A stretch of 13,906 bases of DNA, taken from NCBI GenBank assembly GCA_965223905.1, contig CBDCXV010000003.1:1-13906 (forward strand), in the 5' to 3' direction. A program made the translations under genes and the position numbers. The notes under the pieces were generated by a model. That model did no database searches. It worked only from the letters and a program-made list of their open reading frames with translations, and had not been told where the DNA came from. This stretch comes from Candidatus Latescibacterota bacterium. Lineage in GTDB: Bacteria; Latescibacterota; UBA2968; UBA8231. This document shows, piece after piece, positions 1-13,906 of the stretch (the stretch's first letter is position 1; every line of letters begins with the position of its first letter).

Positions 1-2721
1 GCGCACGTCCCGCAGCTGCAGGAGCATGAACTTGAACTGCGGCTGGATTTTCAACTTGCCCCAGTAGCGGGTGTAGTCCGCCCTGCTGACCGCGTTCCAC
101 TGGTCCAGCCGCCGCTGGCGCTGGAAAGCCCCGCCGGGCAAGAGCCTCTCCTGCTGCCAGTTGAGGCGCAGGCGCAGCTTCTGCACCGCGTTGAACCCCG
201 GCCGGGGACGCCAGTGTCCTTCCAGGTAGGTCTCGTTGACGTAGCTGTCCGCATACAGCAAAGGATCCGTGCGGATGACGATCGGGTTGCCGGCGATGAC
301 GGCCGGCAAACCGTCGAAGGTCGGAGAGTAGGCGCCGCGAACGATGAGCTCGATGTCCTCCCGGGTGCGGTTGAACTCGTCGGGGATATCGTCCTCCACC
401 CGGCGGAAGTGGTTCTCGAAGAAGATCCGGCGCAGCCGCTCGAGGCCCTCCCGGCGATAGGTCAGCAGGGCGTAGGAGGAGTGGTTGCGGCCGCCACCGG
501 CGATGCTGACCACGTGGTGGCGCCCCATGCCGAAGGAGAGCCGGGGCGTCATGTCGTACTGGGCGAACAGGTGATAGCCGCGCTGGTCGGGGTCGTAGGG
601 GTAATCGGGCTCGTAGTCGTCTTCGCGGATGTCGGGCTCGTCGTTGTTGTTGCGATCGAGGCCGTAGACGAAGTCGTTGGGATCGACCTCGTACATCAGG
701 AACGGCTCCTCGTAGTCGGGCAGCGGGTTGAGGTTGCGGTTGACGTCGGAGATGCCATCGTTGTCGGCGTCCTGACCCGGAAAGGTGCCGTCGCAGTCGA
801 AGCTCCAGCATGTCTGGCCCCGGTCGCCCCCAGCAGGCGCGCCGACGACCGCGCCCAGAAGGACTTCCGGCCAGCGGTCGCCGTCTTCGTTGTCCTGCAC
901 CAGGCGCCAGACCATCGTGTCCTCGGAGAGGCCGAAGAAGGGGTCTATTCTCCTCGTGTACCCCTGGGAGCTGTCCCGCGGCAGGTACGCGACCATCTCG
1001 GTGGTGAAGTCGGGATTCATGGAAAACAGTTCGAAGCCCGCGCGTCCGCGGCCGAACCAACTGGTGCCGTTGACGAAACAGGCAGAGCCCTGATCGGTGA
1101 ATCGCGGGCTGCGGTCGAAGGCCGGAGTGCCGCCTGCTCGAGCGGGGAAGCGGGCGAAGCGGGCGGAGCGCGCGTACTCGCCGGTGATCTCGAAACCCGG
1201 CAGCCCGAGATGCACGTCGGCGCTGTAGGTGAAGATCCCGGTGTTGGCGCCGACGTCGAAACGCACGGTCTCCACGTTGGACTGGTCGCGCACGTTGCCC
1301 CTGGCCCGCAGGACCGTCTGGTAGGGCGTGCTGCGATACTTGCTGTCCAGGTTGCCGGGGGCCTCGACCTCCTCGTAGATGCTGGCCATCTCGACCCGGT
1401 AGTCGTTGCCGACAACGGCCTCGATCTGCACGGATTCGATATCGGGTTCCGCCGACAGATCGTAGATGAAGACGAGGACCTCCTCGCCGTCGGCGCTGAG
1501 GATGTCCTCGGGCGACTCGAGAACGAAGGTCGACAGCAGACCCTCCAGGTGGGTGTTCTTCTCGATGAAATCGGGGTTTTTGTCGCGCCACCGGGTGTCC
1601 TCGTTCTGGAGACGGAAGAGGAAGTCGGAGTCTTCGTGCGACAAGCGGTAGAGAAGGTCGGCGTACAGGGGGATCTCCAGGTCCCGGTAGTAGGACGGCG
1701 CCCTTATGAACTCGTTGTAGTCGAATGTCGGCTGGAACCCGGTCGACAGGTGCCTGCCCACCTGGGTGCCGGTCCGGGCCGGGTGTCGGATCACCGCAGG
1801 GGTGATATCGGGCCGCGGCCTGCCGTCGATGAGGAGCCGGACCTCCTGGACCAGGGCTCCGCCGCTGCCGTCTCCGGGCGAATCGTCGCTGAAGCGCACC
1901 AGCAGCAGCTCGGTCAGGGGATGGTCGGGCCGCAGGATTCCCCTGAGGCTGTTGTCGGTGCCCGTGCTCCGGAACGGGTGCAGGTTGACGCCGTTGAAGC
2001 CGATGCTCAGGGCGCCGATTTCCGCCTGCGTCCGGCTGCCCACCAGCATGGTTGAGTTATCTGTATTCTCCTCGAAGGCGTTGGGGTTGCCGCGCCAGTC
2101 GTGCTCGACGTTCGGCCGGGCGATACGGGAGCCCAGTGCCGTGAACTTGAGATGGGGCGCCGACAGGTCCAGGCGGACGCCGTTGAAATCCGTCATCGAC
2201 AGAGTCAGCGGCGTGAAACGGGAGATCAGACCGTCCCCCACAATGATGCTGTACCCCCACTCCTTGTAGCTGTCGCGTCCCACCACGACCTGGTCGAACA
2301 CGTAATGCCACGAGGTCCAATCCTTGAACAGACTGCTGCCGCTGACCTGTCCCGGCCGGCGGGTTTCCCTCCAGTCGAACAGGTCGTATCCGGTTATCAT
2401 GAAATCTCCCATGCCGCTGTAGAAGGCCTGCGGCCGGTTCTGGAACCCGACGTTCTCATCCAGATCCCAGGGGAAGGTGTGGTCCTTGCGGTGCTCGTAG
2501 AGATCGAAGGCGTAGTTGCGGTAGGGGGGCCGTTCGATGCGAAGGAACGGTCTGGAGTCGAAGATCTCGGGAAGGGCCAGATGATCCTCTTCTTCGGACG
2601 GAGCCGGATCTTCGGCTTCGGAGGAAGCCTGAAGACTCCACAGCAATGTCAGCAGCAACAGGCCGGCGCGCCGGGCGGAGCGAGCGGCCCGCAGATCGAA
2701 TCCCCTTGCGCGCTCAATCAT
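1..2721 (-). CDS. Large exported protein, probable outer-membrane beta-barrel with inserted soluble domain and acidic Dx[DN]xDG-type loops (3' end outside window, >=907 aa)
   Basis: Hand translation from ATG at 2721 gives a stop-free frame to position 1. It begins MIERARGFDLRAARSARRAGLLLLTLLWSLQASSEA (Sec-type signal) 6 nt after the upstream TGA (2728-2730). It has many amphipathic strands (FNGVRLDLS, LKFTALGSR, LSIGFNGVNL, YSADVHLGL, FEITGEYAR, KLRLRLNWQ, LKIQPQFKF) and an acidic block (DNEDGD, DADNDGISD, DRNNNDEPD). It is absent from the ORF track because no stop lies in the window. The ORF is solid; the barrel call is inference. Confidence 0.8.
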   Translation of the reverse strand, partial: MIERARGFDLRAARSARRAGLLLLTLLWSLQASSEAEDPAPSEEEDHLALPEIFDSRPFLRIERPPYRNYAFDLYEHRKDHTFPWDLDENVGFQNRPQAFYSGMGDFMITGYDLFDWRETRRPGQVSGSSLFKDWTSWHYVFDQVVVGRDSYKEWGYSIIVGDGLISRFTPLTLSMTDFNGVRLDLSAPHLKFTALGSRIARPNVEHDWRGNPNAFEENTDNSTMLVGSRTQAEIGALSIGFNGVNLHPFRSTGTDNSLRGILRPDHPLTELLLVRFSDDSPGDGSGGALVQEVRLLIDGRPRPDITPAVIRHPARTGTQVGRHLSTGFQPTFDYNEFIRAPSYYRDLEIPLYADLLYRLSHEDSDFLFRLQNEDTRWRDKNPDFIEKNTHLEGLLSTFVLESPEDILSADGEEVLVFIYDLSAEPDIESVQIEAVVGNDYRVEMASIYEEVEAPGNLDSKYRSTPYQTVLRARGNVRDQSNVETVRFDVGANTGIFTYSADVHLGLPGFEITGEYARSARFARFPARAGGTPAFDRSPRFTDQGSACFVNGTSWFGRGRAGFELFSMNPDFTTEMVAYLPRDSSQGYTRRIDPFFGLSEDTMVWRLVQDNEDGDRWPEVLLGAVVGAPAGGDRGQTCWSFDCDGTFPGQDADNDGISDVNRNLNPLPDYEEPFLMYEVDPNDFVYGLDRNNNDEPDIREDDYEPDYPYDPDQRGYHLFAQYDMTPRLSFGMGRHHVVSIAGGGRNHSSYALLTYRREGLERLRRIFFENHFRRVEDDIPDEFNRTREDIELIVRGAYSPTFDGLPAVIAGNPIVIRTDPLLYADSYVNETYLEGHWRPRPGFNAVQKLRLRLNWQQERLLPGGAFQRQRRLDQWNAVSRADYTRYWGKLKIQPQFKFMLLQLRDVR

Positions 2722-2727
2722 TGCTCG

Positions 2728-4812
2728 TCAATACACCACGGCGACCGGCGCCGCCCTGATCTCCACCTCGCGCCCGAAACGGACTCGCACCCTGGCCAGG
2801 TAAATCCCCGGGGGCACCAGGGCGCCCGACTCGTCGCGGCCGTCCCAGTACCCGGGCAGCGCGGTGGCGTCCCCTCCGCCGAGAGGCCGTACGTACTCGC
2901 CGCCTTCCAGGGGTCCGGCCCGCACCATTCGCACCATGCGACCCCTCAAGTCGAAAACGCCGACTTCCACCCACTGAGGGTCTTCGACCCTGGCCAGGAA
3001 GAACTCGATGGCCGTGCCCTCGTTGACTCCATCTCCGTTCGGACTGAATACATCCGGCTCGGCCCGCACCCCGCCCAGCAGGTCTCCCTCTATCGCGCTT
3101 GCCCGCACGAGCCAGGACCGGCTGGTTCCGGGGTCCGTTTCCCCGGTGTCCTCTTCCGTCTCCAGCGAGACATTTTCAGGACCGTAAACCCGAGACCTCA
3201 TCCTGAAGGATTCGGTCAGCAGGCGAGCCCGGAATTCGACTCTGAGCGTGTCGGATTGCCGCCACACGGATGCGAACCGCAGCTCCAGCCGGTCACCCCA
3301 TGCCACCGCCTCCTCCACGCCGACGCCGGCAGGTGCCTCCACCCTCTCGACCACCGCCCGGCTCGGTGTGGCGATGCGCACCCGCTCCACCCCCGGGTCG
3401 TCCTCCGCGAAGTCGAGGACCAGGAGGTAGGTGAACCGTGTTTCCCGGCCCAGCACCGCCTCGTTGGGTGATACGGAGGCGCGGGTGCTGGAGACCGGAA
3501 TCCGGTCGGTAAAGCCGATGACGAGACTGTCGAGTCGGGGGGCCGCATCCTCGAATCGAGTCTCCAGCTCCACCCGGTACTGCAACCAGACGCGCGGCTC
3601 GGGCACCTGCAGAGCGGCTTCGTCCGCCTCGATCGGCGCGCTCCAGGGACTCCAGGTCACGGCGTCGTCGCTGCTGCGAAACCGCAGCAGCAGGTCCGTA
3701 CCCTCGGGGCGGTCGCCGACCCGGCGGACCGACTCGAAGTTCTTGCGCCGGCCCGGACTGCCCAGATCCATGGGCGCCGATACGAAGCTGCCTTCCGGGG
3801 CCGTACCCGCACCGAGAACCTGGATCTCGGCCACGCGGGCGCTGTTCACCGGGTCGACCTCGGCGACTACGACTTGGAGGAAGCGCGCCATGACCGGATC
3901 GAAGGCGATTCCGGAGCGAATGTACTCTTCGACCCCGTGGCGGACTCCCACTTCTTTCCACAGGAGCCGGTCGTTGCTGACCTGGACCCCGTAACCGAGC
4001 AGCGTGTTGTCGGCCAATTCATCCGGGTCGCTGCCGAAGGTGATGACCCGCACCTCGCCGATAAGGCGAGGCTGCAGCAGATCGACGCGGGCCGAGGCGC
4101 TCAGCGCATCCGGGTTGACCTGCCACCTCGTGGCGAAGTCCCCGTCGAACACCTCGTCGGGGAGGCCCGGTTTTTCATGGGCGAGGTTTTCGCCAAACGT
4201 CGTCCGCAGGGTCAGTCCCCCCTGCGGCCGCCCGGCATCGACTCCCCCCGGAAACCCGGCGATCACTTCGGCTCCCAGGTCATCCGACCAGCCCACCAGC
4301 CGGCTGCGGTCGAGCTGTCCTCTCTGCACCGGCCTCCACACCTCCTCGTCCAGTCTGGCGCTCGTGCGCCAGCCGTCCTCCTCCTGAGGCTCGCCGGTCC
4401 AAAGCCACGGCTCGCTCACACCGCTGGTGTTGCTGGCCCACACCCGGCCCTCGGGTCCCGTGATCTCGACCAGCAGGCCGCTGCCCTGTCCGCGGCCGCT
4501 GTTGTCGACCTGCACGGCGAGATGGTTCCCCCGTCTCCGGAGGGTAACCGGATACTCTTCCACCGTTGTCCAGTTCTCGTCGATTCCCGTGCCCAGCGAC
4601 TCGCCGCCGAAAAAAACCTCGAACGCGTCGACGGCCGTCAGGCGCACGACCGCGCCCCCGGCGACCGCGGCGTTGAAGCTGAAACGGTAGTACACCGTCT
4701 GCGGCCACCGGCCCTGCGAGCATTCGTTCGCCGAGCACACGACCGCACCACCGCCCGGCCGGACGCAGCACAGCAGACAAAGCCCGATGGGAATGATGCG
4801 TATGCCCGGCAT
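2728..4812 (-). CDS. Exported multidomain protein (694 aa): N-terminal beta-sandwich/lectin-like domain, F5/8 type C (discoidin/CBM32-like) domain, further beta domains, C-terminal FlgD-Ig / gliding-motility-CTD-like domain
   Basis: This is the C-terminal part of the listed 2728..5973 ORF. ATG at 4812 lies 5 nt after the upstream TAG (4818-4820) and starts a signal-like MPGIRIIPIGLCLLCCVRPGGGA. Discoidin pattern: ENLA..FDGDFATRW..VDL....IGEVRVI..YGVQVSND..W..FDPVMARFLQV..ARVAEIQVLG (~4194-3810). C-tail: PDVFSPNGDGVNE..VGVFDLRGRMVR..WDGRDESGALVPPGIYLARV (~3060-2731). Confidence 0.85.
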   Translation of the reverse strand: MPGIRIIPIGLCLLCCVRPGGGAVVCSANECSQGRWPQTVYYRFSFNAAVAGGAVVRLTAVDAFEVFFGGESLGTGIDENWTTVEEYPVTLRRRGNHLAVQVDNSGRGQGSGLLVEITGPEGRVWASNTSGVSEPWLWTGEPQEEDGWRTSARLDEEVWRPVQRGQLDRSRLVGWSDDLGAEVIAGFPGGVDAGRPQGGLTLRTTFGENLAHEKPGLPDEVFDGDFATRWQVNPDALSASARVDLLQPRLIGEVRVITFGSDPDELADNTLLGYGVQVSNDRLLWKEVGVRHGVEEYIRSGIAFDPVMARFLQVVVAEVDPVNSARVAEIQVLGAGTAPEGSFVSAPMDLGSPGRRKNFESVRRVGDRPEGTDLLLRFRSSDDAVTWSPWSAPIEADEAALQVPEPRVWLQYRVELETRFEDAAPRLDSLVIGFTDRIPVSSTRASVSPNEAVLGRETRFTYLLVLDFAEDDPGVERVRIATPSRAVVERVEAPAGVGVEEAVAWGDRLELRFASVWRQSDTLRVEFRARLLTESFRMRSRVYGPENVSLETEEDTGETDPGTSRSWLVRASAIEGDLLGGVRAEPDVFSPNGDGVNEGTAIEFFLARVEDPQWVEVGVFDLRGRMVRMVRAGPLEGGEYVRPLGGGDATALPGYWDGRDESGALVPPGIYLARVRVRFGREVEIRAAPVAVVY

Positions 4813-4817
4813 ATCGC

Positions 4818-6059
4818 CTAATCGGCAGCTACCGAGAAGTCGAAGGGGTAGGTCACGACCACCGGCAGGGGAGCCGGCGGAGGCATCGAGGGCCGGGACG
4901 GGTCCGGACCGTCCTGCGGATCTGCCGCCGCCGGAGGGGACTCGGCAGGCCGGAAGCCCAGTTGCTCGATTTCCCGCGCCACGCAGGGACCCACCGAGTC
5001 GTTGCCAACCGTCGACTCGGTCACGGAAACCTCGGTTACCGCCCCTCCCACGCCGATGGTGAAGCGGACGACGACGCGCCCCTGGGTCGCCTCCCCTCTG
5101 TCGAACGGCTCGGCGAAGCAGCGGTCGAACTCCGCCAGTTGCCGGCGGACCTCGGCCCGGATGGCGGCCTCGTCCCGAGTGCGGTCTCCCGGCAGATTTC
5201 CGAGGATCTGGAAAGGGCCGTTCTCGGAGACCATCAGCGCCGCGGCGGTCGCGGCCGGGCCGGCGCCCTTCCCCTCCAGCAGGCGCTGCTCCACCCGGTG
5301 CCGGAAGGCGAAACGCAGATCCCGGGTCTCCTCCGGGATGTCGAAAGCGCCGAAGCGGAGGACGAAATTCCTCAGGTGAAGGATCACCTCTTCGCTTTCG
5401 GCGTACACCGGATCGAAGACGATGAAACCACCGTAGTTCTCGCCTTTGAAAATCGCCTGATTCTCTTCGTAGTTGTGGCTGCGCACGGTTCCCAGCCGCA
5501 CCTCGAAGCGGTAGAACTCGTTTCCGCTCTGTCCTCGGCGGGAGCGGTAGTAGTTCTCGAAGTTTTCGTAGGGCGAAGCCGAAGTAATGCCGTAGGCGCG
5601 CAGGTGCTGGCCCTGGTCGGTGGTGACGACGGCCTCGAGGGGATCGAGCAGCACCTTCGGGAAGGTGCGGTTGAAGATGGTGACCTTGAACACGGTGAAG
5701 CGGTTGGGAGTGTACCCCAGACGGGTATCGACCCAGTTGCCGTAGGTATAGGGATTGGTCGAGTACTTTCCGCGCGACGACTCGTCGGGAAAGAGCCGGT
5801 TCAGCTTTTCGTCGGTCATATGCTCTACCTCGACCCGAAGGCCGGACAATTCCCACGAGATACTGCCGTCCTCCTGGATTGCGTATCTCTCCTCCCCGCT
5901 CCCGGTCTCTCCTGCTCCCCCGACAGGAGTCAGGATCGTCTCGTGCTTGATGGCCGCAGGAAACAGGAAGCATCCGGCCGCCAGCCCCGACAGGGCGGCG
6001 ACCAGCGGTACGGTCAGCCGCCCCCCTGCTCCCGCCGCTCGGGACGCAGGCGACCTCAC
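4818..6059 (-). CDS. Lipoprotein (413 aa) with unknown N-terminal domain and C-terminal AgmX/PglI-type TonB-C-like domain
   Basis: GTG start overlaps the upstream TGA (GTGA, 6056-6059) with AGGA upstream. Lipobox-like LAAG-C30 (Cys codon 5972-5970). The C-terminus AAIRAEVRRQLAEFDRCF..GRVVVRFTIGVGGAVTEVSVTESTVGNDSVGPCVAREIEQLGF..VVVTYPFDF fits the two-Cys AgmX/PglI tail pattern. Confidence 0.85.
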   Translation of the reverse strand: MRSPASRAAGAGGRLTVPLVAALSGLAAGCFLFPAAIKHETILTPVGGAGETGSGEERYAIQEDGSISWELSGLRVEVEHMTDEKLNRLFPDESSRGKYSTNPYTYGNWVDTRLGYTPNRFTVFKVTIFNRTFPKVLLDPLEAVVTTDQGQHLRAYGITSASPYENFENYYRSRRGQSGNEFYRFEVRLGTVRSHNYEENQAIFKGENYGGFIVFDPVYAESEEVILHLRNFVLRFGAFDIPEETRDLRFAFRHRVEQRLLEGKGAGPAATAAALMVSENGPFQILGNLPGDRTRDEAAIRAEVRRQLAEFDRCFAEPFDRGEATQGRVVVRFTIGVGGAVTEVSVTESTVGNDSVGPCVAREIEQLGFRPAESPPAAADPQDGPDPSRPSMPPPAPLPVVVTYPFDFSVAAD

Positions 6060-7312
6060 CTCGTCCTTTCCGTGTAGAAGTCGATCTGCTGCCGAGCGAT
6101 CGATCCCTGCTGCGTCATGGCAAAGACGACAATGTTGACCCCGATCTGCAGCTGGGGCGTATTGCGGAATTCCTTTTCCCAGGCGCGGCCGTATTCCTTG
6201 GTTGACAGCACCACCACGAGCCGGTCCCCGAGGAAGATCCCCTCCAGAAACGGTTTCTCGGGGCGGAACTCGCGGGTGAAGATGACGATGTCCTGGGATC
6301 GTTGCGGCGGCGGACCGTCGTCGAAGTCGTAGAAACTGTGGTAGACGGGATGGTCCTCGGGCAGGACCCGGAAGCGGGCGTCCCGGCCCAGGGCCCCCTT
6401 CAGCATCTGCCGCAGCGAAGCCTCGGCAGGGGTGAACTCTTTCGCCACGGCATCGTGCCGCGTGCCGGATTCGACCATGGCCTCGACGAAGGCGAAGCCG
6501 CCCTGGCGCAGGTAATCACCGAGGTTGGCCATCTCCCTCTCCGTCGGTTCGAAGGCCTGCTCCGCCGCTATGTAGACGAAGGGCGCCCGGAAAATCTCGC
6601 GCGAATCGAGGAACAAGTGGTTGTCCACTTCGGCGCGAATCTGGGTGAAATCGTTTATCGCCTCAACGAGCTCGAACATGGCCCGTTGAGTAGGGGGATC
6701 GAGATCGTTGCCCCAGGCCAGTGCGAGGTAGACGAAACCGGTGATATTCTGCTTGTCGCCGGGATCCTGGATCACCAGCCCCTTGTAGCGGCCGATGTCC
6801 AACGCCTCCAGATCGAGAAATTCCTCCTGCATGCTGATCCGCTTGTCCGGCTCCTTGGGGCTTTCGATGGCAACTCGCTTCACCTCGGGCTGCACGATTT
6901 CCAATCCCAGCCCGGCGCCGCTGTCGACGCCGAACCGGAAGGTGCGGATCTTTCCGGCCAGATCGGGCCGGCGGATCTGCAGCCGATGCGCAATTTGTGG
7001 TTTCGCGGCCCGCACCTGGCGGGTCATCTGCCGCTTGGGCATCTTGCGTTTCTCGAATTCGAAGGGCTTGGTCATGCGCGGTTTGCGCACCACCAGGTGC
7101 ATGACCGGCGGCTTGGGCGGCTTCTTTTTTTCTTCGCGCAGGGAGAGAAAGGCGAGGGGCAGCGACAGAAGCACGAAGGCGACGGCAACGGCAGCCCAGG
7201 TCAGCCGCCGCTGGAGCCGCAGCAAGTCCTCCAGCTGGAGAAAATCGGTCGGGGTAGAGAAACGCCGCGATCTCCGGCCAGGCCGATCCGCCGCGGAGCT
7301 CTCCCGGTTCAT
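6056..7312 (-). CDS. Bitopic membrane protein (418 aa): TM helix, Lys/Pro/Arg-rich linker, C-terminal DUF4159-like domain
   Basis: ATG at 7312 overlaps the TPR gene stop (ATGA, 7309-7312), so it is preferred over 7333. TM LTWAAVAVAFVLLSLPLAFLSL is followed by EEKKKPPKPPV. DUF4159-like motifs: PFVYI..EMANLGDYLRQGGFAFVE..LPEDHPVYHSFYDF..LEGIFLGDRLVVV..GVNIVVFAMTQ. Confidence 0.82.
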   Translation of the reverse strand: MNRESSAADRPGRRSRRFSTPTDFLQLEDLLRLQRRLTWAAVAVAFVLLSLPLAFLSLREEKKKPPKPPVMHLVVRKPRMTKPFEFEKRKMPKRQMTRQVRAAKPQIAHRLQIRRPDLAGKIRTFRFGVDSGAGLGLEIVQPEVKRVAIESPKEPDKRISMQEEFLDLEALDIGRYKGLVIQDPGDKQNITGFVYLALAWGNDLDPPTQRAMFELVEAINDFTQIRAEVDNHLFLDSREIFRAPFVYIAAEQAFEPTEREMANLGDYLRQGGFAFVEAMVESGTRHDAVAKEFTPAEASLRQMLKGALGRDARFRVLPEDHPVYHSFYDFDDGPPPQRSQDIVIFTREFRPEKPFLEGIFLGDRLVVVLSTKEYGRAWEKEFRNTPQLQIGVNIVVFAMTQQGSIARQQIDFYTERTR

Positions 7313-10300
7313 AGGCGGGTGGTCTCGATCCATTCCTTGTGCATGCGCGCGAAGCGATAGGCCTCGACCTGCTCGGCCGCCTCGCCGTCGAAGCGGCTCA
7401 GAACCCTCTCGTACGCTTCAACCGCCTTGTCCCACTCTTCCAGGGACTCGTAGCAGACACCCATATTGCTCAGCGCCCCGATTTCGCTCTCGGTACCTGG
7501 ATATGTCTCGACGATGCCTGCGAACCCTTTAATGGCCTCGCGGAACTGGTCCGGGTCCTGTTCCTCGAGCGCTTTCACGAAAACCGCCTCCACCTCGGCG
7601 TAAGTGCGATAGGCCACGACCTCGCGAAGATCTTCCAGCAACGGCGGCACCTTCCGCGCCGCGTCGCTGTCGGGGAAACGGGCCAGCACCGCGTTGTAGG
7701 CGTCGAGCGCTTCGACGTAGCGCTTCTGGTTGTAGAGGAAGTCGCCGATCGTGAACTGGGCGTCGGCGGCCAGAGGACTCTCCGGATACCCGGAAGAGAG
7801 TCGCTCGAAATCCCTCAATGCCTCTCCGTCCCGCTCGAGGTTCAGAAGTGACCAGGCCTTGTTGTAGAGCGCGCCGTCCGCCAGGTCGGCCGCAGGGTAT
7901 CGGTCCAGGAGACCCTGATAGGAGTCCAGGGCTTTGTCGAAACGATCGAGGTTGTACTCCGCTTCCGCGGCGCGAAAGAGCGCATCCGGCGCCAGTTCGC
8001 TGGCGGGGTAGGTCGAGGCCAACTCGCTGAAGACGACCGCCGCCCGCTCGAAGCGGGTCAGGTTGAACAAGGCGTAGCCGAGATAGTAGAGGCCGTAAGC
8101 GCGGTTGGGGTGTCCCTGGTGAGCGTGCAGGTAGGACTCCAGCGCCTCGCCGGCAACTTCGAGATCGCCCTTGTCGAACAGCGCCTGACCCAGCGCAAAC
8201 CGCATGTCGCCGGCGTAGTAGGAGTCGGGGTATTCGTCCAGGGCCCGGCGATAAACGGCGATCAGGCTGTCGGCCATGTCCTGCTGGCCGTACCCGTCGC
8301 CCAGCAGGAAGTAAGCCTTCTCCTTTTTCGCGTAGGGCTGGTCGCCGCGCCCGTCGGGAATATCAGAGGATATGAGCTCGCGGCACAGCGATTCGAGGCG
8401 CGTGAAATTTCCCAGCCTGAAATGCAGCTCGGCCAGCACGACCAGGTGTCGGGCGCGCTCCTGCCCGGATGCCGCGGCCGCCGCCAGTGTTTCGAAGTCC
8501 TCCAAGGCCTCCCGCTCGCGTCCCATCTCCAGATGGACAAGACCGAGCATGCGGCGCGCAGAAGCTGCCATCTCAGCGTTTTCCCCCTGCACCAGTTGCT
8601 GCAGATCGGACGCGGCCGCCGGCAGACGCCCGAGCTTCAGCAGGCTGACCCCACGGCCGTAAAGGGCGCCCTCGCGAACTGTGCGATCATCCGCGATGTC
8701 GATGGTCCGGGTAAGTGCCTCGACGGCATCTTCGAACTTTTCCATCTCGATCGCCGTCCGGCCCTTCATGTAGTGGAAGCGCGCCCGGTCCGCCGCTACG
8801 GTGACGGCTGCCAGGCCCCGGTCCAGCACCTCGAGGGCGGCCCCATGGTCGCCTTCGGATGCCAGCAGATTGGCGGCTTCCAGCATGGCCTTGGCAAACA
8901 GCTCCGACTGCGGCTCGATGCTTTCGAAGGCCGCGACCGCCGGCTCCGGCTCCCCCAGGTCCCGGTAGCACAGCGCCATCTCGAACCGGGCTCCGGGCAA
9001 CTGCGGGTCTCCGGGAAACTCCTCCAGAATCTGCTCATAGGCCGCGATGGCCAGCCGGTATTCGCCGCGCTGGAAGCGGATTCTTCCGATCTGGAAGAGG
9101 GCGCTGCGCACATATTCCCGCTCTATCCCATCCTCGACGATGGAATCGAAGAGCTCCATCGCCCGCGTCTCGAAGGGGGTGTCCCCTTCGCCGATCATCT
9201 GGTAGCAGAGGCCGATGTTGAACGGAACCGCCCCGGCGGCCAGCTCGCCGTCGGGATAGTCCCGCGCGATCGACTCGTAGACCTCGATCGCCTTCAGATA
9301 GGAGACCCTGGCGGTCCGGGGCCGTTGGGCCCGGCGTTCGATTTCGGCTGCTTCGAAGTGCGCCCTGCCGATCTTGTAGCTCGCCCAGGGTTCCGACAGC
9401 CCCGCGGCCATTGCCACGTCTCCGTAGGCGTCCAGGTAGAGGTGGTATTCGAAAATCGCCTGCTCGTAGTCCCCGTTGTCGTAGTAGTATTCGGCCAGCA
9501 GCGACTGCATGCCGCCCTGAAAGATTCGATCCCGGCTGTTGTCGATGGCCTCGCCGTAAGTGCGCACGGCGCTGTCCCGGTCCCCGGACCGGGTGTAGAT
9601 GCCGGCCAGCCGGATATACGCCTCCGAGACCAGCCGCTGCTCCTGGGAAAACGCGGTAATCACCTTGCGGTACGACGCTGCTGCTGCCTCTGAGTCGCCG
9701 CGGCGGGCATGGCTGTCGCCGATCTTGATCTGCGCCTTGGCCGCCAGCTCGATCGCCGTTTCGTCCACCAGTCCGGCCATCTTCTCGCGCCGCATCTTGA
9801 GCAGCTCACGGTCGCTCATCAGGTCGATGTTCTGCCGCTCGACGACTTTCCTGTACGCGGCAGCGGCCTCGGCGAAGCGTTCCTGTTCGAAGTTGGCCTC
9901 GCCGAGCTGGAACTGGGCTCTTTCCGACCGGTATCCGGTCGGAAACCGCTGCTGGAAGTTCTCGAACGCCTCTATACTCTCGGAATGGCGCCCGGCGTCG
10001 AAGTAAGCCCAGCCAATATTGTAGAGCACGTTCTCCAGGAAATCGCTACCGGGGTATTTCTCGAGAAAGACCCTGCCCTCTTCGACCGTCTCGTCGTAGT
10101 TCCCGCTCTCGTAAAGGCAGGTGATCAACCGGTTGCGGGCGAGGTCCGGCAGCCCCGGGGTCAGCGCCTCCGACTCGGTCCGGCGGAAGAAATCGGCGGC
10201 GCGAGCGAAATCTTCCGCGGCCTGTACCCGGAGGCGCTCGGCGCGCCGCGGGTCCCGGGAGTGAAGCGCCAGGTTCTTCCTCTCCTGGGCCCTTTTCAGG

Positions 10301-10563
10301 TAGCTGTTGCCGGTCTGATACAGGGCGATCTCCTGAATCGGACCCTGGATCTGTCCGACCTCCGTCGTGATTTCCAAACTGAACAGAAGAGAGCTCCGGA
10401 TGCGGTTGATGCGTTCGTAGGTCTCTATCGCCTGCTCGTAGTCTTCGGCGGCGTAAAACTTCTGGGCCTGCTTGAAGGAAGCCCGCACTTCGTCAGGGGT
10501 GGGCACGAAGTGCGAACCGATCACGAGCCCGGTCAGGGCGGTGACGATGAGCCAGGGAGCCAT
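7309..10563 (-). CDS. Large tetratricopeptide-repeat protein (1084 aa), BamD/CpoB(YbgF)-style TPRs, N-terminal hydrophobic anchor/signal
   Basis: Long ORF with repeated TPR hairpins of the type YP.S..A..A.F..G (KYPGSDFLENVLYNIG, RFPTGYRSERAQFQLG, TYPASELAPDALFRAA, GYPESPLAADAQFTIG). N-terminus MAPWLIVTALTGLVIGSHF is hydrophobic. Confidence 0.92.
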   Translation of the reverse strand: MAPWLIVTALTGLVIGSHFVPTPDEVRASFKQAQKFYAAEDYEQAIETYERINRIRSSLLFSLEITTEVGQIQGPIQEIALYQTGNSYLKRAQERKNLALHSRDPRRAERLRVQAAEDFARAADFFRRTESEALTPGLPDLARNRLITCLYESGNYDETVEEGRVFLEKYPGSDFLENVLYNIGWAYFDAGRHSESIEAFENFQQRFPTGYRSERAQFQLGEANFEQERFAEAAAAYRKVVERQNIDLMSDRELLKMRREKMAGLVDETAIELAAKAQIKIGDSHARRGDSEAAAASYRKVITAFSQEQRLVSEAYIRLAGIYTRSGDRDSAVRTYGEAIDNSRDRIFQGGMQSLLAEYYYDNGDYEQAIFEYHLYLDAYGDVAMAAGLSEPWASYKIGRAHFEAAEIERRAQRPRTARVSYLKAIEVYESIARDYPDGELAAGAVPFNIGLCYQMIGEGDTPFETRAMELFDSIVEDGIEREYVRSALFQIGRIRFQRGEYRLAIAAYEQILEEFPGDPQLPGARFEMALCYRDLGEPEPAVAAFESIEPQSELFAKAMLEAANLLASEGDHGAALEVLDRGLAAVTVAADRARFHYMKGRTAIEMEKFEDAVEALTRTIDIADDRTVREGALYGRGVSLLKLGRLPAAASDLQQLVQGENAEMAASARRMLGLVHLEMGREREALEDFETLAAAAASGQERARHLVVLAELHFRLGNFTRLESLCRELISSDIPDGRGDQPYAKKEKAYFLLGDGYGQQDMADSLIAVYRRALDEYPDSYYAGDMRFALGQALFDKGDLEVAGEALESYLHAHQGHPNRAYGLYYLGYALFNLTRFERAAVVFSELASTYPASELAPDALFRAAEAEYNLDRFDKALDSYQGLLDRYPAADLADGALYNKAWSLLNLERDGEALRDFERLSSGYPESPLAADAQFTIGDFLYNQKRYVEALDAYNAVLARFPDSDAARKVPPLLEDLREVVAYRTYAEVEAVFVKALEEQDPDQFREAIKGFAGIVETYPGTESEIGALSNMGVCYESLEEWDKAVEAYERVLSRFDGEAAEQVEAYRFARMHKEWIETTRL

Positions 10564-10597
10564 GGAATGAGTGCCCCGCGCAATTTTCTGCGGTCAG

Positions 10598-10618
10598 CGA
10601 CGCGTTACGACGCGTTAC
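10598..10618. repeat. Perfect 10-bp tandem direct repeat (CGACGCGTTA x2 + C)
   Basis: cgacgcgtta at 10598-10607 and 10608-10617, followed by c. Each unit contains the palindrome ACGCGT. Confidence 0.85.
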
Positions 10619-10645
10619 AATGGTCGCTGGGAGGTCACGAGTCAA
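10617..10645 (-). promoter_or_regulatory. Putative sigma70-type promoter for the minus-strand operon
   Basis: The minus strand reads TTGACT (10645-10640), a 17-nt spacer, then CATTGT (10622-10617), about 54 nt upstream of the TPR start. The -35 matches 5/6 and the -10 only 3/6. Confidence 0.45.
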
Positions 10646-10726
10646 GCCGGCCGGGAGGTGAAAGCGGCCTTGAAAGGGCTAGAATCCTGAAATCGGCCGC
10701 GGTCTATCCGCGACCACGTTTTCATT

Positions 10727-10739
10727 CTATACCGTATAG
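10727..10739. promoter_or_regulatory. Palindrome CTATAC-C-GTATAG in AT-rich intergenic patch, possible regulator site
   Basis: Perfect 6-1-6 inverted repeat midway between the two putative divergent promoters. Confidence 0.3.
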
Positions 10740-10761
10740 CATCAATACATACAATAAATGT

Positions 10762-10790
10762 CATTGGTCGCCGATCCATTGGTTGCCGAT
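10762..10790. repeat. 14-bp direct repeat with 15-bp period (CATTGGTYGCCGAT x2)
   Basis: cattggtcgccgat (10762-10775) and cattggttgccgat (10777-10790) match at 13/14 positions. Confidence 0.8.
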
Positions 10791-10809
10791 GGAACGGGTT
10801 CTATATTTG
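10779..10809 (+). promoter_or_regulatory. Putative housekeeping promoter for exbB-exbD-exbD
   Basis: TTGGTT (10779-10784), a 17-nt spacer, then TATATT (10802-10807). The same bases also read TTG-N20-TATATTTG, which fits the Bacteroidota TAnnTTTG element. Confidence 0.5.
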
Positions 10810-10872
10810 CGGCCCTGCAGGACTCCCGGGCTTCGAACGAAGTTGAACAACCGCGTTGACTGGAGATTGACA

Positions 10873-11616
10873 ATGGAAACGCTGATGTCAGGCGGCATCC
10901 TGATGATCCCATTGGGGCTGTGCGCCCTGTTGGCCCTGGGCTTCGCCCTCGAACGGCTCTGGGTCCTCTCCCATATTCCCGACGCGGAAAATGCCCAGAA
11001 CATCCTCGAAGAGGCGGAACGATGCCTCGTCGACCGGGGAGAGGCAGCCGCGGCCGAATACTGCCGCGACCACGATGGCCCGCTGACCTACATCTTCGCT
11101 TCCCTGCTCAAGCGCTTCGCCACCCTCATGCTGGAGCGGCGCGAACTTCAGGCCACCGAGGAGCAGATGGCGCGTTTATCGGAGCAGGCCGGCGCCGGTG
11201 CGCTGTCTCACTTCATGCTCCGGCTGAAGGCTTTGGGAGACCTGAGGGACGAGCTCGTGCTCGAGACCGACGAGGCCGGCAAAGCCTACCTTGGCCGGCA
11301 CCTGGTCGTGCTCAACACAATCGGAAACATCGCGCCGCTGCTGGGACTGTTCGGCACGATTCTCGGCATGATCACCGCCTTCGAGGCGATTGCCGCGGCC
11401 GGCACCGGCGATCCCAAGGTGGTAGCCGGGGGAATCTCGCAGGCGCTCGTCACCACCGCTGCGGGGCTCGCCATCGCCATCCCCTCCATCGTCGTCTACC
11501 GCTACCTGGCCCGGCGGGCCGAGCATTTTCGCGGCCACCTGGAAGTGTACGGGCTGGCCTTCGTCAACAGCCTCCTCGTCGCCGGGCAGAAACAGCTCGA
11601 CGAGGCGGGCGCCTGA
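10873..11616 (+). CDS. exbB: MotA/TolQ/ExbB family proton-channel protein (247 aa)
   Basis: ATG 10873 has RBS GGAGA at 10862-10866. TM1 is GGILMIPLGLCALLALGFALERLW. Family signature: TIGNIAPLLGLFGTILGMITAF..VAGGISQALVTTAAGLAIAIPSIVVY. ExbB and TolQ cannot be separated by eye. Confidence 0.93.
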   Translation: METLMSGGILMIPLGLCALLALGFALERLWVLSHIPDAENAQNILEEAERCLVDRGEAAAAEYCRDHDGPLTYIFASLLKRFATLMLERRELQATEEQMARLSEQAGAGALSHFMLRLKALGDLRDELVLETDEAGKAYLGRHLVVLNTIGNIAPLLGLFGTILGMITAFEAIAAAGTGDPKVVAGGISQALVTTAAGLAIAIPSIVVYRYLARRAEHFRGHLEVYGLAFVNSLLVAGQKQLDEAGA

Positions 11617-12035
11617 TGGCGCTGGTCCGCCACCGGGTCCGCCAGGCCCTTGCGGAGGAGGGCGAGACCGACCTGACGTCGTTGATCGACTGCGTGTTTC
11701 TGCTGCTCATCTTCTTCATGGTCACCACCGTCTTCATCCACACGAAAGGGCTCGACGTCGACCTGCCGGCCAAGAGCGAGACGACGGAGCAGAAGAAGAA
11801 GGATATCAACGTCCACGTAGGTGCACAGGGGCGCATCCGGATCGGCGGCGTCGACGCGGCGCCGAGCGCACTGGTAGCGCGGCTCAAGCAGGCCATGCAA
11901 GAAGCGAACAACGACAACATCATCATCCAGGGCCATCCCGACTGCGCGCAGGAACGGATCGTGCTCGTCGTGGATGCAGCCAAGGCGGCGGACGTAGCCG
12001 GCATCGCCTTTGCCAAGGAAGAGGGTGGGCGCTAG
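11616..12035 (+). CDS. exbD: ExbD/TolR family biopolymer transporter subunit 1 (139 aa)
   Basis: ATG overlaps the exbB stop (TGATG). DLTSLIDCVFLLLIFFMVTT carries the conserved TM Asp, followed by GLDVDLP and the IIIQGH..IVLVVDAAKAA periplasmic fold pattern. Confidence 0.92.
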   Translation: MALVRHRVRQALAEEGETDLTSLIDCVFLLLIFFMVTTVFIHTKGLDVDLPAKSETTEQKKKDINVHVGAQGRIRIGGVDAAPSALVARLKQAMQEANNDNIIIQGHPDCAQERIVLVVDAAKAADVAGIAFAKEEGGR

Positions 12036-12475
12036 TGCCTGCGCGCGCGACGATCGAGGAGGAACTCGATGGCGATCGGCTCAACATGACGCCGATGATC
12101 GACTGCGTGTTTCTGCTGTTGATTTTCTTCATGGTCACCACTGTCTTCAGGCAGCCTCACACCCTGAAGGTCGAGCTGCCCCAAGCTCGTGAGGCGACGA
12201 TAGTGGAAGAGAAGAAACTGGTGGCCTCCATAGACAGTGGCGGGGCGCTCGAGCTCAACCGCCAGCACCTTACCACGGCGGATCTCCCAGGTGTACTGGC
12301 TCGGGAGAAGGAGAGGACGCGCAGCCTGACGCTGATCATTCGCACCGACAAGAAGACCCGGCACGGAATGGTCCTTGAAGTGATGGAAATAGCCAAGGCA
12401 CTTAAAATCGACAAGGTGGTCCTGGCGACGGACGAGCTCGAGGACGCAGCCGCAGGACTGTATCCCACACCCTGA
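12035..12475 (+). CDS. exbD: ExbD/TolR family biopolymer transporter subunit 2 (146 aa)
   Basis: GTG overlaps the upstream TAG (TAGTG) with GAGGG upstream. Motifs LNMTPMIDCVFLLLIFFMVTT, LKVELPQA and LIIRTDKKTRHGMVLEVMEIAK. Confidence 0.93.
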   Translation: MPARATIEEELDGDRLNMTPMIDCVFLLLIFFMVTTVFRQPHTLKVELPQAREATIVEEKKLVASIDSGGALELNRQHLTTADLPGVLAREKERTRSLTLIIRTDKKTRHGMVLEVMEIAKALKIDKVVLATDELEDAAAGLYPTP

Positions 12476-12576: not shown

Positions 12577-13906
12577 ATGACGGAGACTGCGGGTTTCACC
12601 GTGCCGGCAGGGCAGCGCCAGCTGTTCATCGACGGTCACGGCATCGCCGCCATCGAAAACCTCAAGCGCAGTTTGCACCAGCCCTCCAAGAAGGGAGCGG
12701 TTATCCGCCCGACTCGGGACGAAAAGGGCGTGCAATCCCGCAGCACCCCTCACTGGAACGAGCAGCTCGGACTGTTCCGGTTGCTCGCCGACGGCAAGTG
12801 GTATCAAAGCCCCGACGGACTGCACTGGACCCGGGATAAAACCCCGCCGCTCGTAAACGAGGAGGCGCCCTGGGCACACGTTCTCTACGAGCCGGACGAC
12901 CCCGATCCACAACGCCGCTACAAGGGCCTCACTTCGCACGTCGTCAATCTCGATACCGGCAAAAGAGTGGTGCATTCCTCCGAGCGCGTCGACGAGTTCG
13001 GCAAGCCCCTGAAGGGCAAGAGATTCGCACGCACGATGGACTTCATGACCTCTGCCGACGGCGCCGACTGGAATCTGCTCGACGCCGGAATACCGACCTT
13101 CGACGAATGGAACCTGAGCTGCGACTCACTGGGTGGGCAGTACATAATCGCCTGCAAGACGTCGGGTACCTACGGCCGCTCGCATGCTATCAGCACGAGC
13201 CCCGATTTCGCCGACTGGACCGACCCCGTGCTTTCCATTCAAGCCGATGATCTCGACCAGGAGCTCGGCCGCCTCCACATCGAGGAGTACCTGAAATCCT
13301 CGAATGCGGACTACCTGAAACCGTTTCCCAATACATGTGAATGGGCCTGGCAGAACGTTGACATCTACAACGCCGGAGTCTTCCGCTACGAGGGCATCTT
13401 CCTCGCGTTGCCGGCGATTTACCACGCGCGCGGCGAGCGCTGGACCAGCCATACCCTGCGTTTCACGCTCATTCAGCTCTGGTCGAGCCGCGACCTCTAC
13501 ACCTGGGAGCGGGTGGCGAATCGACAGACATTCATTCCCTGGTCAGCGGGCGGGGCCGGCGCCTACGACCTCAACAAGAACCTGCCCCCTTCCTATCCGC
13601 TCGTGCGCGGCGACGAGCTCTGGTTTTACTACAGCGGGCGCAAGGAACAGTCCGTCTACCCGGATCCGGACCCGGACATCTCGGCCATCTGCCTCTGCAT
13701 CCTGCGGCGGGACGGATTCGTCTCGCTCGATGCCGACTCGGAAGAGGGCCGTCTCGTCACCGAGGCGTTCCCGGTCCCCGGCGACAGACTCTTCCTCAAC
13801 GCCAACGCGGAGAAGGGGCAGCTCATTGTTGAAATGCTCGATGAGAGCGGGGAAAGGGTGGCGTTGTCGACCCCGATTGAAAGCGACGAGCGACGGGTCG
13901 AGATCC
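12577..13906 (+). CDS. Asp-box beta-propeller protein, glycoside-hydrolase-like (GH32/GH43/sialidase-like fold), no signal peptide; 3' end outside window (>=443 aa)
   Basis: Hand translation from ATG 12577 is stop-free to the edge: MTETAGFTVPAGQRQLFIDGHGIAAIENLKRSLHQP... It has four Asp-box-like motifs (SPDGLHW, SADGADW, SPDFADW, SRDLYTW), plus DELWFYYSG and LRRDGFVSLDA leading into a C-terminal beta domain. It is absent from the ORF track. Substrate unknown. Confidence 0.8.
   Translation, partial: MTETAGFTVPAGQRQLFIDGHGIAAIENLKRSLHQPSKKGAVIRPTRDEKGVQSRSTPHWNEQLGLFRLLADGKWYQSPDGLHWTRDKTPPLVNEEAPWAHVLYEPDDPDPQRRYKGLTSHVVNLDTGKRVVHSSERVDEFGKPLKGKRFARTMDFMTSADGADWNLLDAGIPTFDEWNLSCDSLGGQYIIACKTSGTYGRSHAISTSPDFADWTDPVLSIQADDLDQELGRLHIEEYLKSSNADYLKPFPNTCEWAWQNVDIYNAGVFRYEGIFLALPAIYHARGERWTSHTLRFTLIQLWSSRDLYTWERVANRQTFIPWSAGGAGAYDLNKNLPPSYPLVRGDELWFYYSGRKEQSVYPDPDPDISAICLCILRRDGFVSLDADSEEGRLVTEAFPVPGDRLFLNANAEKGQLIVEMLDESGERVALSTPIESDERRVEI

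Follow-up and report, generated by a model that had tools for sequence, protein, structure and literature searches.

A conserved gene set of an ExbB/ExbD motor with a giant TPR protein, a DUF4159 anchor, a lipoprotein, a lectin and a barrel in Candidatus Latescibacterota

A contig of a Candidatus Latescibacterota bacterium (CBDCXV010000003.1, assembly GCA_965223905.1) carries a gene set that is genuine, conserved and so far unstudied; it encodes a proton-driven ExbB/ExbD motor together with a giant TPR protein, a TonB-like anchor with a DUF4159 head, a lipoprotein, a lectin and a barrel. The motor of this gene set probably powers sugar capture or surface-protein handling. We consider it close to an even bet that the whole is a Ton/Tol-like trans-envelope module, driven by the proton motive force, and that it works for the neighbouring lectin and barrel genes.

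Gene layout and conservation

The window analysed here is the entire 13.9-kb contig C3, 13,906 nt in length. Its eight genes form two divergent sets, five on the minus strand and three on the plus strand, as listed in Table 1. The six junctions, read from the sequence, are ATGA, which holds if the DUF4159 protein starts at Met8, GTGA, a 5-nt gap, a 6-nt gap, TGATG, where the start of the first exbD overlaps the exbB stop codon, and TAGTG, the overlap at the start of the second exbD. GC content reaches its minimum for the window (0.592) in the 1-kb bin 10001-11000, within which the divergent intergenic region lies. A preliminary description of this DNA had reported two divergent gene sets with tight junctions, and sequence reading and profile searches bore out all eight genes and all six junctions. 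It had also stated correctly that tonB, tolB and pal are all absent from the window.

Table 1. Features of the 13,906-nt window
Feature	Position	Strand	Remarks
Barrel-like ORF (BAR)	1-2721	-	907 aa present; 3' end cut by contig end
Lectin-like protein (LEC)	2728-4812	-	694 aa; F5_F8_type_C_2
Lipoprotein (LIP)	4818-6059	-	413 aa; lipobox, NF033768
TM-DUF4159 protein	6056-7333	-	425 aa; PF13709, 100.4 bits
TPR protein	7309-10563	-	1084 aa; TPR families
Divergent intergenic region, TPR operon vs exbB operon	10564-10872		309 bp
ExbB/TolQ-family proton-channel subunit	10873-11616	+	MotA_ExbB (PF01618), 97.9 bits
ExbD/TolR-family subunit 1	11616-12035	+	PF02472, 85.1 bits
ExbD/TolR-family subunit 2	12035-12475	+	PF02472, 100.5 bits

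Is the proximity of the motor genes to the minus-strand genes accidental? Five further paralogous modules occur in the same genome, and the exact divergent arrangement of the window is found in 12-13 other species-level genomes, so the linkage is not due to chance. Six loci of this genome join TPR, DUF4159 and lipoprotein genes with barrel, lectin or ExbB/ExbD genes. At C2:277991-297241 and C11:901180-913060, every part is encoded on the same strand, the order being LEC-BAR-TPR-ExbB-ExbD-ExbD-(DUF4159)-LIP, and the TPR, motor and DUF4159 genes are collinear at the paralogous locus C2:360933-368512 and at loci L078, L079, L096, L098, L099 and L101. The long form of the DUF4159 protein is present in all 18 genomes of the family. 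At least one partner family is present at 57 of 78 DUF4159-anchored loci taken from GTDB species genomes (TPR at 41, barrel at 37, lipoprotein at 35 and ExbB/ExbD at 24). The TPR, TM-DUF4159 and lipoprotein genes accompany exbB and the two exbD genes, and the set is conserved together with lectins and giant barrels in which no Plug domain is recognisable. The proposals that the minus-strand genes are conserved beside exbB-exbD-exbD, and that the two divergent sets form a conserved functional unit, are upheld by this recurrence in other genomes and in the paralogous loci. One study yielded near-identical short contigs spanning all of the genes in four of its RNA-library runs, a weak hint that the gene set is expressed.

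Motor, candidate transducer and periplasmic partners

The motor subunits belong to the ExbB and ExbD families by their Pfam scores. However, they fall far below the equivalog cut-offs, at 80.9 vs 221 bits for TolQ and 75.5 vs 206.2 for the ExbB model TIGR02797, while the two ExbDs score 35.5 and 39.8 vs 152.95 with TIGR02803 and 55.2 and 65.1 vs 127.3 bits with TolR. The transmembrane segment of ExbD subunit 1, LIDCVFLLLIFFMV, contains an Asp, and a transmembrane Asp is also present in subunit 2. The two are about 30-34% identical in cross-matches and are heterologous partners. In the ExbB tree, which is built without named Ton, Tol or Agl references, the window ExbB and 13 orthologues form one clade (SH-aLRT 99), and the ExbB copies of the modules as a whole do not.

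The DUF4159 protein consists of a cytoplasmic RFxxPxD motif, a transmembrane (TM) helix that is its single hydrophobic segment (residues 47-65), a basic 'PRMTKPFEF' segment conserved among homologues (alignments A2 and A4), a linker of about 100 aa and the DUF4159 head (residues 202-406 in the Pfam match). The post-TM motif has an invariant Pro and Lys and, in most members, follows a His in the TM helix, which is seen in five of the six aligned copies of this genome and in most homologues. The clade of the window copy (L024-L042 and the window) has no such His and reads LLSLPL or LLAIPVIY, so that TonB-like docking is less certain for the window protein. At L078, L079, L092, L096, L098, L099 and L101, the DUF4159 gene follows exbD, the usual position of tonB. 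On sequence grounds, we propose that the DUF4159 protein is a candidate force transducer of the TonB/TolA type.

The preliminary description had put the locus forward as an undescribed, separate class, and this can no longer be maintained as worded, since the available portion of a 2025 paper (PMC12204202) already describes a class of loci with TPR, tolQ-like and two tolR-like genes and a transducer without a TonB head; the novelty of our gene set is reduced accordingly. According to the portion available, those transducers have a vWA-fold head and a TM helix that leads into a strand-like 'motor box' and contains, in most members, a conserved His (SHLS-type). All four components have counterparts in the window, but divergently arranged, and most DUF4159 proteins likewise have the TM His, although the window copy does not, and a conserved post-TM motif. 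The head here is DUF4159 by its Pfam profile, with no match to a VWA family in that search, and may or may not be of the same family. DUF4159, Gemmatimonadota, Latescibacterota and FCB do not occur in the available main text of PMC12204202, which also names neither a lipoprotein nor a barrel or lectin as a partner.

The TPR protein scores 213.6 bits with TPR_6 among the TPR families of Pfam and has YbgF/CpoB-like repeats in seven stretches. A short N-terminal hydrophobic anchor is followed by a 'PTPxE..SF..AQKFY' motif, which is kept in paralogues and orthologues. We suggest that this protein is a periplasmic scaffold.

The lipobox Cys30 of the lipoprotein is kept in every one of 21 aligned homologues. 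This protein had been labelled a 'TonB-C' lipoprotein; the Pfam match is below threshold (E 0.019), but the NCBIfam AgmX/PglI C-terminal domain model NF033768 is matched above its cut-off (59.6 vs 40 bits), and the fold agrees with the label. In the AF2 model (pLDDT 78.6), residues 290-412 match the TonB C-terminal domains 9ddz_A (Z 8.3, rmsd 2.3, 83/83 aligned) and 6i97_E (Z 8.1, 90/90 aligned), and residues 46-259 match the beta-sandwiches of YcdA, YjhA and MPT63 (Z 6.8-8.3). The lipoprotein is thus predicted to be an N-terminal beta-sandwich with a C-terminal TonB/TolA fold. The modelled TonB-fold tail counts for the Ton/Tol-like reading, and the presence of such a tail in only three of the ten lipoprotein paralogues of this genome counts against it.

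The barrel, the lectin-like protein and their cassettes

The full-length barrel has 1021 aa (P0001, 100% identical to the window ORF), and its AF2 model is a large all-beta barrel (pLDDT 81.2, pTM 0.80). The structure matches are generic only, to MtrB (E 2.5e-8), SlpA and, near 1e-4, TonB-dependent receptors, all with TM < 0.31; the VIA Z was at most 13.5. The preliminary description had allowed that the barrel might prove to be an ordinary plugged TonB-dependent receptor. It is not recognisable as one: no Plug or TonB_dep_Rec domain was found in Pfam at E ≤ 1, and hhalign of the barrel against 22 receptors of its own genome gave only 0.15-0.35%, while the half-against-half controls both gave 100%. 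None of the 27 Plug matches of the genome falls in a barrel gene of this family. Neither a TonB box nor a plug could be demonstrated in the barrel, which counts against the Ton/Tol-like reading. The 27 Plug-domain receptors lie elsewhere in the genome, as does a canonical exbB-exbD-exbD-tonB set (C1:234841-237005). By its sequence, the protein appears to be a very large outer-membrane barrel that is not recognisable as a plugged TonB-dependent receptor.

The lectin-like protein has a signal peptide, a discoidin/F5-8 type C domain and a CHU_C/FlgD-Ig-like C-terminal domain. The discoidin half of its earlier designation as a discoidin-FlgD protein stands above the Pfam cut-off (F5_F8_type_C_2, 29.3 vs 27.8 bits), but the FlgD half does not, with FlgD_ig at 20.1 and CHU_C at 23.2 bits for the C-terminal fragment, both below the cut-off of 27. 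The proteins of about 650 aa at the paralogous loci score 48-57 bits with FlgD_ig.

The genome has 57 paralogues of the lectin-like gene and 35 barrel genes. Other genes recur in the lectin-barrel cassettes elsewhere in the genome, encoding SurA-like PPIases (12), polytopic DUF6785+DUF6784 proteins with at least nine hydrophobic segments (12), a secreted protein of about 300 aa (14) and membrane PMT_2+TPR glycosyltransferase-like proteins. The downstream gene orf9 belongs to a family with 21 paralogues in this genome; in the Atlas it is nearest to GH32/BNR-like clusters (score 0.94), which is a lead only, and Pfam, NCBIfam and PDB sequence searches with it returned no match.

These cassettes admit a reading as an export and display system, in which the type IX-tailed lectins are the cargo, the barrel is a translocon adaptor or surface anchor, and ExbB, the two ExbDs, the TPR protein and the DUF4159 protein are the energy source. 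In Flavobacterium, PorP/SprF-like barrels play such a part for cargo with type B tails. Consistent with export, 32 of the 35 barrel genes lie directly downstream of a lectin-like gene on the same strand, and these lectin-like genes encode type IX-style tails; the proteins of about 650 aa pass the cut-off of the T9SS type A sorting domain (TIGR04183, 33.4 vs 23). SprA is over its cut-off in all 26 genomes of the family, and therefore tail-bearing proteins can reach the surface, whereas GldM and GldL are over theirs in none of the 26. On a Bacteroidota genome used for validation, the GldM model scored 363 bits; the searches for GldL, GldN and PF12081 had no positive control, and divergent PorLM homologues could escape these equivalog models. 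The TPR protein also resembles PorW/SprE, though below threshold (100 bits vs a cut-off of 250). However, the tail of the window lectin is below every curated cut-off, the barrel has nothing in common with PorP/SprF or PorV beyond its barrel shape, and the polytopic DUF6785/DUF6784 proteins and glycosidase-like orf9 suit uptake better. The SurA-like chaperones and PMT_2+TPR proteins would be equally at home in surface-protein biogenesis and in import. We regard export as rather unlikely, and as the main rival to glycan uptake.

Known systems and the proposed role

Could the module instead be a Tol-Pal-like system for envelope maintenance, which tethers or stabilises the outer membrane, and in which ExbB/ExbD, the DUF4159 protein, the lipoprotein and the TPR protein would correspond to TolQ/TolR, TolA, Pal and CpoB, respectively? 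The TolQ and TolR models are the top NCBIfam rows of the motor subunits, the YbgF/CpoB-type repeats score 242 bits, TolB is absent from the genome over its cut-off (best 111 vs 343 bits), and a TolQ-like gene at C1:1530246 has no adjoining TolA, TolB or Pal. However, the motor falls well short of the Tol equivalog cut-offs, and neither Pfam nor comparison of the model fold shows an OmpA-like peptidoglycan-binding domain in the lipoprotein. Six modules per genome, each linked to lectin-barrel cassettes, are also not what one would expect of a single housekeeping system. This makes the Tol-Pal-like reading improbable.

A gliding machine of the Agl-Glt type is less probable still. Like the Myxococcus system, the gene set has one TolQ-like and two TolR-like subunits, TPR repeats and the AgmX/PglI C-terminal domain, and the preliminary description had noted an Agl-Glt-like parts list. 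That likeness comes down to one common C-terminal domain: the GltG equivalog NF033760 gives 34.1 vs 650 bits, over the shared tail only, and the Agl and other Glt models were unmatched at E ≤ 0.01. The partners and copy number also differ, and motility, which had been offered as an option, is unlikely for a multi-copy system that accompanies 35 barrel and 57 lectin paralogues. Finally, the motor genes might be no more than neighbours of the minus-strand operon, with no common function. This view could draw on their divergent transcription in the window and on contig C10, where exbB is about 52 kb from the exbD pair, but it is largely refuted by the recurrence of the same partners on one strand in paralogous loci and in other genera.

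The gene set resembles Ton in four respects: its motor is of the ExbB/ExbD family, a TonB C-terminal fold is present, a barrel in the outer membrane is the partner, and the transducer gene takes the place of tonB. Unlike in Ton, the features of TonB are split, with the TM anchor on the DUF4159 protein and the modelled TonB fold on the lipoprotein with its invariant Cys; the partner barrel has neither a Plug domain nor profile similarity to the 22 receptors tested, and a separate canonical Ton set is present in the same genome.

Polysaccharide utilisation loci of Bacteroidota comprise many paralogous SusC/SusD cassettes, in which a surface glycan binder is paired with an outer-membrane barrel and glycosidase-like genes are near. 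The many cassettes of the present genome similarly pair a lectin with a barrel, with glycosidase-like genes nearby. Unlike those loci, they have no SusC-type receptor and no SusD, their binders have type IX-style tails rather than lipid anchors, and dedicated motor modules are built into some of them.

Another parallel is the FCB-superphylum cluster FSU_2396-2403 of Fibrobacter succinogenes S85, for which the available portion of PMC6851124 gives OmpA, two TPR proteins, ExbB, two ExbDs and a TonB-family protein, up-regulated on cellulose. It shares the combination of TPR, ExbB, two ExbDs and transducer, and is connected there with the use of polysaccharides and with surface enzymes secreted by the type IX system, with no partner barrel identified in that portion. 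It differs in its TonB-family protein and OmpA, and the same portion reports neither a DUF4159 protein nor giant barrels.

We suggest the following mechanism. ExbB and the ExbD1/ExbD2 pair would make up a stator of the usual 5:2 stoichiometry. The analogue of TonB/TolA would be the DUF4159 protein, with its TM helix, a conserved and putatively strand-like post-TM segment comparable to a 'motor box', the linker and a globular head. Scaffolding of the periplasmic span would fall to the TPR protein, and the lipoprotein would be an adaptor on the outer-membrane side, whose TonB-type tail might bind the barrel through strand addition. The lectin would be displayed on the surface via type IX secretion, as the presence of SprA allows, and the barrel would be a gated channel for glycans. 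Since only 12 of the 35 barrels, about one-third, are within 12 kb of a motor-module gene, most cassettes would have to borrow a motor or work without one, which weighs against the proposal. The hints of glycans are the discoidin domain of the lectin-like protein and the GH32/BNR-like lead for orf9. Energised glycan capture and uptake, in the manner of a polysaccharide utilisation locus, is in our view the likeliest role of this gene set, one to which we give somewhat less than an even chance.

Gene content and conservation of the locus

The assembly of the source genome comprises 7.9 Mb in 11 contigs and is 93.6% complete. The window is the whole of one of these contigs, C3 (13,906 bp), so both of its ends are assembly breaks. 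The preliminary description had divided eight genes into two divergent sets with six tight junctions, and each of the six quoted junctions was confirmed exactly when the sequence was read. The transmembrane Asp is retained in both ExbD proteins, and in the TPR protein a short hydrophobic anchor at the N-terminus precedes a motif that is kept in all paralogs and orthologs.

Features of the window, in order along the contig
Feature	Position	Strand	Remarks
Barrel-like ORF	1-2721	-	907 aa, 3' end cut
Lectin-like protein		-	694 aa, secreted; F5/8 type C (discoidin) domain, 29.3 bits (cut-off 27.8)
Lipoprotein		-	413 aa
TM-DUF4159 protein		-	425 aa; one TM helix and DUF4159 domain, 100.4 bits
TPR protein		-	1084 aa
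Intergenic gap			309 bp, between the minus-strand set and exbB
exbB		+	97.9 bits
Two exbD genes		+	85.1 and 100.5 bits
orf9	12577-13905	+	443 aa, downstream of exbD2, cut by contig end

The product of orf9 gave no match in Pfam, NCBIfam, or PDB sequence searches. It has 21 paralogs in the source genome; paralogs are also found beside orthologous loci and a lone exbB at C10:2171754. Its nearest Atlas clusters are GH32-N/BNR-like β-propellers (score 0.94), which would make it glycosidase-like; we take this as a lead only.

The module, consisting of ExbB, two ExbD, the TPR protein, the DUF4159 protein, and the lipoprotein, is linked to lectin and barrel genes beyond chance, both in the source genome and in others. 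By tblastn and phmmer, the source genome contains 35 barrels, 57 lectin-like proteins, 10 of the lipoproteins, 8 DUF4159 proteins, 6 long TPR proteins, and 5 module-type ExbB. Six loci join motor-side genes with barrels and lectins, two of them entirely on a single strand. The synteny is kept in four orthologous loci from other genera, and all 18 family genomes contain the long form of the DUF4159 protein. When GTDB species genomes were scanned with DUF4159 as the anchor, 78 loci emerged, whose carriers are titled Candidatus Latescibacterota, Gemmatimonadota, Gemmatimonadetes MAGs, or Ca. Latescibacter anaerobius. At least one partner family is found at 57 of these loci (TPR at 41, barrel at 37, lipoprotein at 35, and ExbB/D at 24), and the exact order ExbD-ExbD-ExbB, then divergently TPR-DUF4159-lipoprotein-lectin-barrel-barrel, at 12-13. 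At 21 loci, DUF4159 stands alone or in tandem arrays. A tree of 30 ExbB rows places the window copy in a well-supported clade with 13 orthologs; named Ton, Tol, or Agl references are not part of this tree, and its deep branches are unsettled and subject to long-branch effects.

The exbD pair of the closest paralogous module lies with the operon (C10:2118799-2119653), but the matching exbB is about 52 kb away (C10:2171754-2172512), which looks like a rearrangement. This lone exbB is 59% identical to that of the window and still has an orf9 paralog downstream. The closest paralog of the window lectin (50-57% identical; C8:42114-44049) was found as four tblastn pieces and is split by gene calling into ORFs of 121 and 122 aa. 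It adjoins two barrels near a contig end; a frameshift in the gene or a fault in the assembly may account for the split.

Contigs of 175-439 nt from four RNA-library runs of one study, labeled sponge metagenome, cover parts of every gene with 0-4 mismatches, and some of them span the lipoprotein/DUF4159, DUF4159/TPR, and exbB/exbD junctions. They are only a weak hint of expression of the locus, since they are blind to strand, level, and single transcripts and may stem from carried-over DNA. The uncovered stretches (e.g., window 1393-2320) are without meaning.

The DUF4159 protein and the lipoprotein

The DUF4159 protein has, in order, a cytoplasmic RFxxPxD motif, a single TM helix, a conserved basic segment (..KPP.M.LVVRKPRMTKPFEF..), a linker of about 100 residues, and the DUF4159 head. 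Its gene fills the position of tonB, after exbD, in collinear loci. The N-terminal 130 residues of four such proteins have no Pfam match at E ≤ 10. A His in the TM helix is kept in most members; the clade of the window does not have it. This is the main point against strictly TonB-like docking, which is therefore less certain for the window protein. The top-scoring DUF4159 protein of the source genome (219 aa, secreted, 218 bits) lies in a locus at C1:997494-1008696 whose other products are a MoxR AAA+ ATPase, a DUF58 protein, a PorZ-like propeller, and a TPR protein, unlike the context of the TM-anchored window form. It follows that the module form of DUF4159 is a diverged subfamily with a TM anchor. 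On four Latescibacterota MAG contigs (L060, L061, L086, and L095), three or four DUF4159 genes stand in tandem, with no motor gene within the stretch examined. A further gene, 38% identical to that of the window, lies on a contig titled Nanoarchaeota archaeon MAG (L088), which is probably a mis-binned bacterial contig.

The lipobox Cys of the lipoprotein is invariant in all 21 sequences. Its tail scores above the cut-off of the NCBIfam AgmX/PglI C-terminal domain (59.6; cut-off 40), and the cut-off of Pfam TonB_C is not passed. In the AF2 model (pLDDT 78.6), residues 290-412 superpose on the full length of TonB C-terminal domains, with Z = 8.3 and an rmsd of 2.3 over 83 of 83 residues for 9ddz_A, and Z = 8.1 over 90 of 90 residues for 6i97_E. 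TolA domains rank slightly below TonB domains as structural matches. The N-terminal domain has no Pfam match at E ≤ 10; in the model, it is a β-sandwich resembling YcdA, YjhA, and MPT63. PDB sequence searches with the lipoprotein, the DUF4159 protein, and orf9 gave nothing useful.

We suggest that the module would transduce force in a Ton/Tol-like manner. Its transducer would be the DUF4159 protein, which has the three-part TolA/TonB layout, and the TPR protein is a natural candidate for a scaffold across the span. Contact with the barrel would fall most naturally to the lipoprotein and its TonB-fold tail. When the DUF4159 head (160-425) and the mature lipoprotein (31-413) were predicted as a complex, the score was 0.00, which is uninformative either way.

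The giant barrels and their cassettes

A full-length barrel of 1021 aa (P0001), 100% identical to the window copy, was found in the protein collection. Its AF2 model, built with 81 homologs (pLDDT 81.2, pTM 0.80), is a very large all-β barrel with inserted domains. Foldseek and VIA returned only generic barrels, with MtrB the best match (E = 2.5e-8), followed by SlpA and by TonB-dependent receptors at about 1e-4; all matches have TM < 0.31, with VIA Z ≤ 13.5. Some of the receptor alignments start near residues 50-63 of the model, which could hint that an N-terminal segment fills the lumen. Pfam shows neither Plug nor receptor domain in the barrel, only a weak SlpA_C row, and none of the 27 Plug matches in the source genome lies within a barrel gene. 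Furthermore, the profile of the barrel family matches the profile of 22 receptors from the same genome with a probability of 0.15-0.35%, while the two half-against-half controls each gave 100%. The family has an invariant acidic loop, D610-P708 of P0001 (window ~600-900, minus strand), where model confidence is low. Its invariant residues run from D610, N611, D613, and D615 to D689, R690, N691, N693, D697, E700, D701, D702, D706, and P708, a pattern reminiscent of calcium-binding repeats.

Of the 151 genomes sampled across the phylum, 94 carry barrels of this family; in the window's own family, 63 of 63 genomes do. They were found in none of 30 and none of 19 genomes of two other families, including a genus with many closed genomes. 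In the source genome, 32 of 35 barrels lie directly 3' of a same-strand lectin-like gene, and only 12 have a motor-module gene at a distance of 12 kb or less. The neighbors that recur in these lectin-barrel cassettes are SurA-like PPIases (12), DUF6785+DUF6784 proteins (12), which have 9 or more hydrophobic segments, a family-less secreted protein of about 300 aa (14), and TPR proteins. Some of these TPR proteins, e.g., at C10:1842199-1844493, begin with a PMT_2 membrane domain (GT-C glycosyltransferase-like), and this domain hints at a possible glycosylation of envelope or surface proteins. In paralogous modules, proteins of about 650 aa adjoining the lectin score above the cut-off of the T9SS type A sorting domain. 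Separately, the genome has a canonical exbB-exbD-exbD-tonB set together with 27 plugged receptors, and no TolB above the cut-off.

Possible uptake or secretion, and relation to known systems

What do the modules energize? Proton motors of 5:2 stoichiometry are known to power import in Ton, envelope stabilization in Tol, gliding in Agl, and type IX secretion in PorLM. We favor nutrient uptake, most likely of glycans, because the multicopy cassettes bring a binding protein together with a barrel, a polytopic inner-membrane protein, and neighbors that may be glycosidase-like. The gene order, in which a tail-bearing protein is followed by a barrel, also matches the logic of cargo and adaptor. As the main alternative, it is possible, though less likely, that the modules drive export instead, with the tail-bearing lectins as cargo and the barrels behind them as adaptors.

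A more specific form of export concerns type IX secretion. SprA, the type IX translocon, scores 608 bits in all in the source genome, with a PorV-like match below threshold, and is above the cut-off in all 26 family genomes (this genome and 25 others, at least 90% complete). By contrast, the motor proteins GldL and GldM are above the cut-off in none of the 26, with one weak row each. The GldM model gave 363 bits in a Bacteroidota genome as a positive control and no match in a closed relative; the GldL, GldN, and PF12081 searches were run without a positive control. Around SprA, a gene-caller listing contains no module-family member and no motor candidate. Since SprA is kept and GldL/GldM were not detected, the modules could energize a type IX-like pathway lacking PorLM. 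That they are the missing energizers of such a branch, with a Ton/Tol-type stator driving tail-bearing lectins out through the giant barrels that follow them, or powering their surface attachment to these barrels, seems to us quite improbable.

The closest published match is the class of 'vWA'-headed transducers described by Williams-Jones et al. 2025 (PMC12204202), TolA/TonB-like proteins with an SHLS/His TM helix, motor box, linker, and non-TonB head, with which the module shares its core architecture. That paper gives the function of these transducers as unknown, and its main text names neither DUF4159 nor Gemmatimonadota, Latescibacterota, or FCB. A TPR-TPR-ExbB-ExbD-ExbD-TonB cluster of Fibrobacter succinogenes is reported to be induced on cellulose and to have no known partner barrel (PMC6851124). 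In the literature searched, DUF4159 is named only in the Pfam database paper, DUF6785/DUF6784 nowhere, and work on Gemmatimonadota or Latescibacter with ExbD, TonB, or polysaccharide utilization contains nothing on the module; the relevant passages of PMC4454575 and PMC10581226 deal with canonical Ton alone.

The window contributes the massive cassette expansion, the division of TonB features over two proteins with the TonB fold verified, the exclusion of a receptor relationship of the barrel at profile level, the His-less transducer clade, and the contrast between SprA, which is present, and GldL/GldM, which were not found. The module is a real, conserved, uncharacterized machine. It represents a further way of wiring a 5:2 motor to the outer membrane, through a TonB-like anchor with a DUF4159 head and a separate TonB-fold lipoprotein, to very large barrels without a recognizable Plug, in dozens of copies per genome. 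Its carriers are widespread uncultured bacteria with public labels of Latescibacterota or Gemmatimonadota. If the barrels serve secretion, they could explain type IX-like secretion without PorLM. If they import glycans in an energized manner, they would correspond in function to SusC/SusD systems while consisting of unrelated parts, and the annotation of carbohydrate uptake in Latescibacterota/Gemmatimonadota would change.
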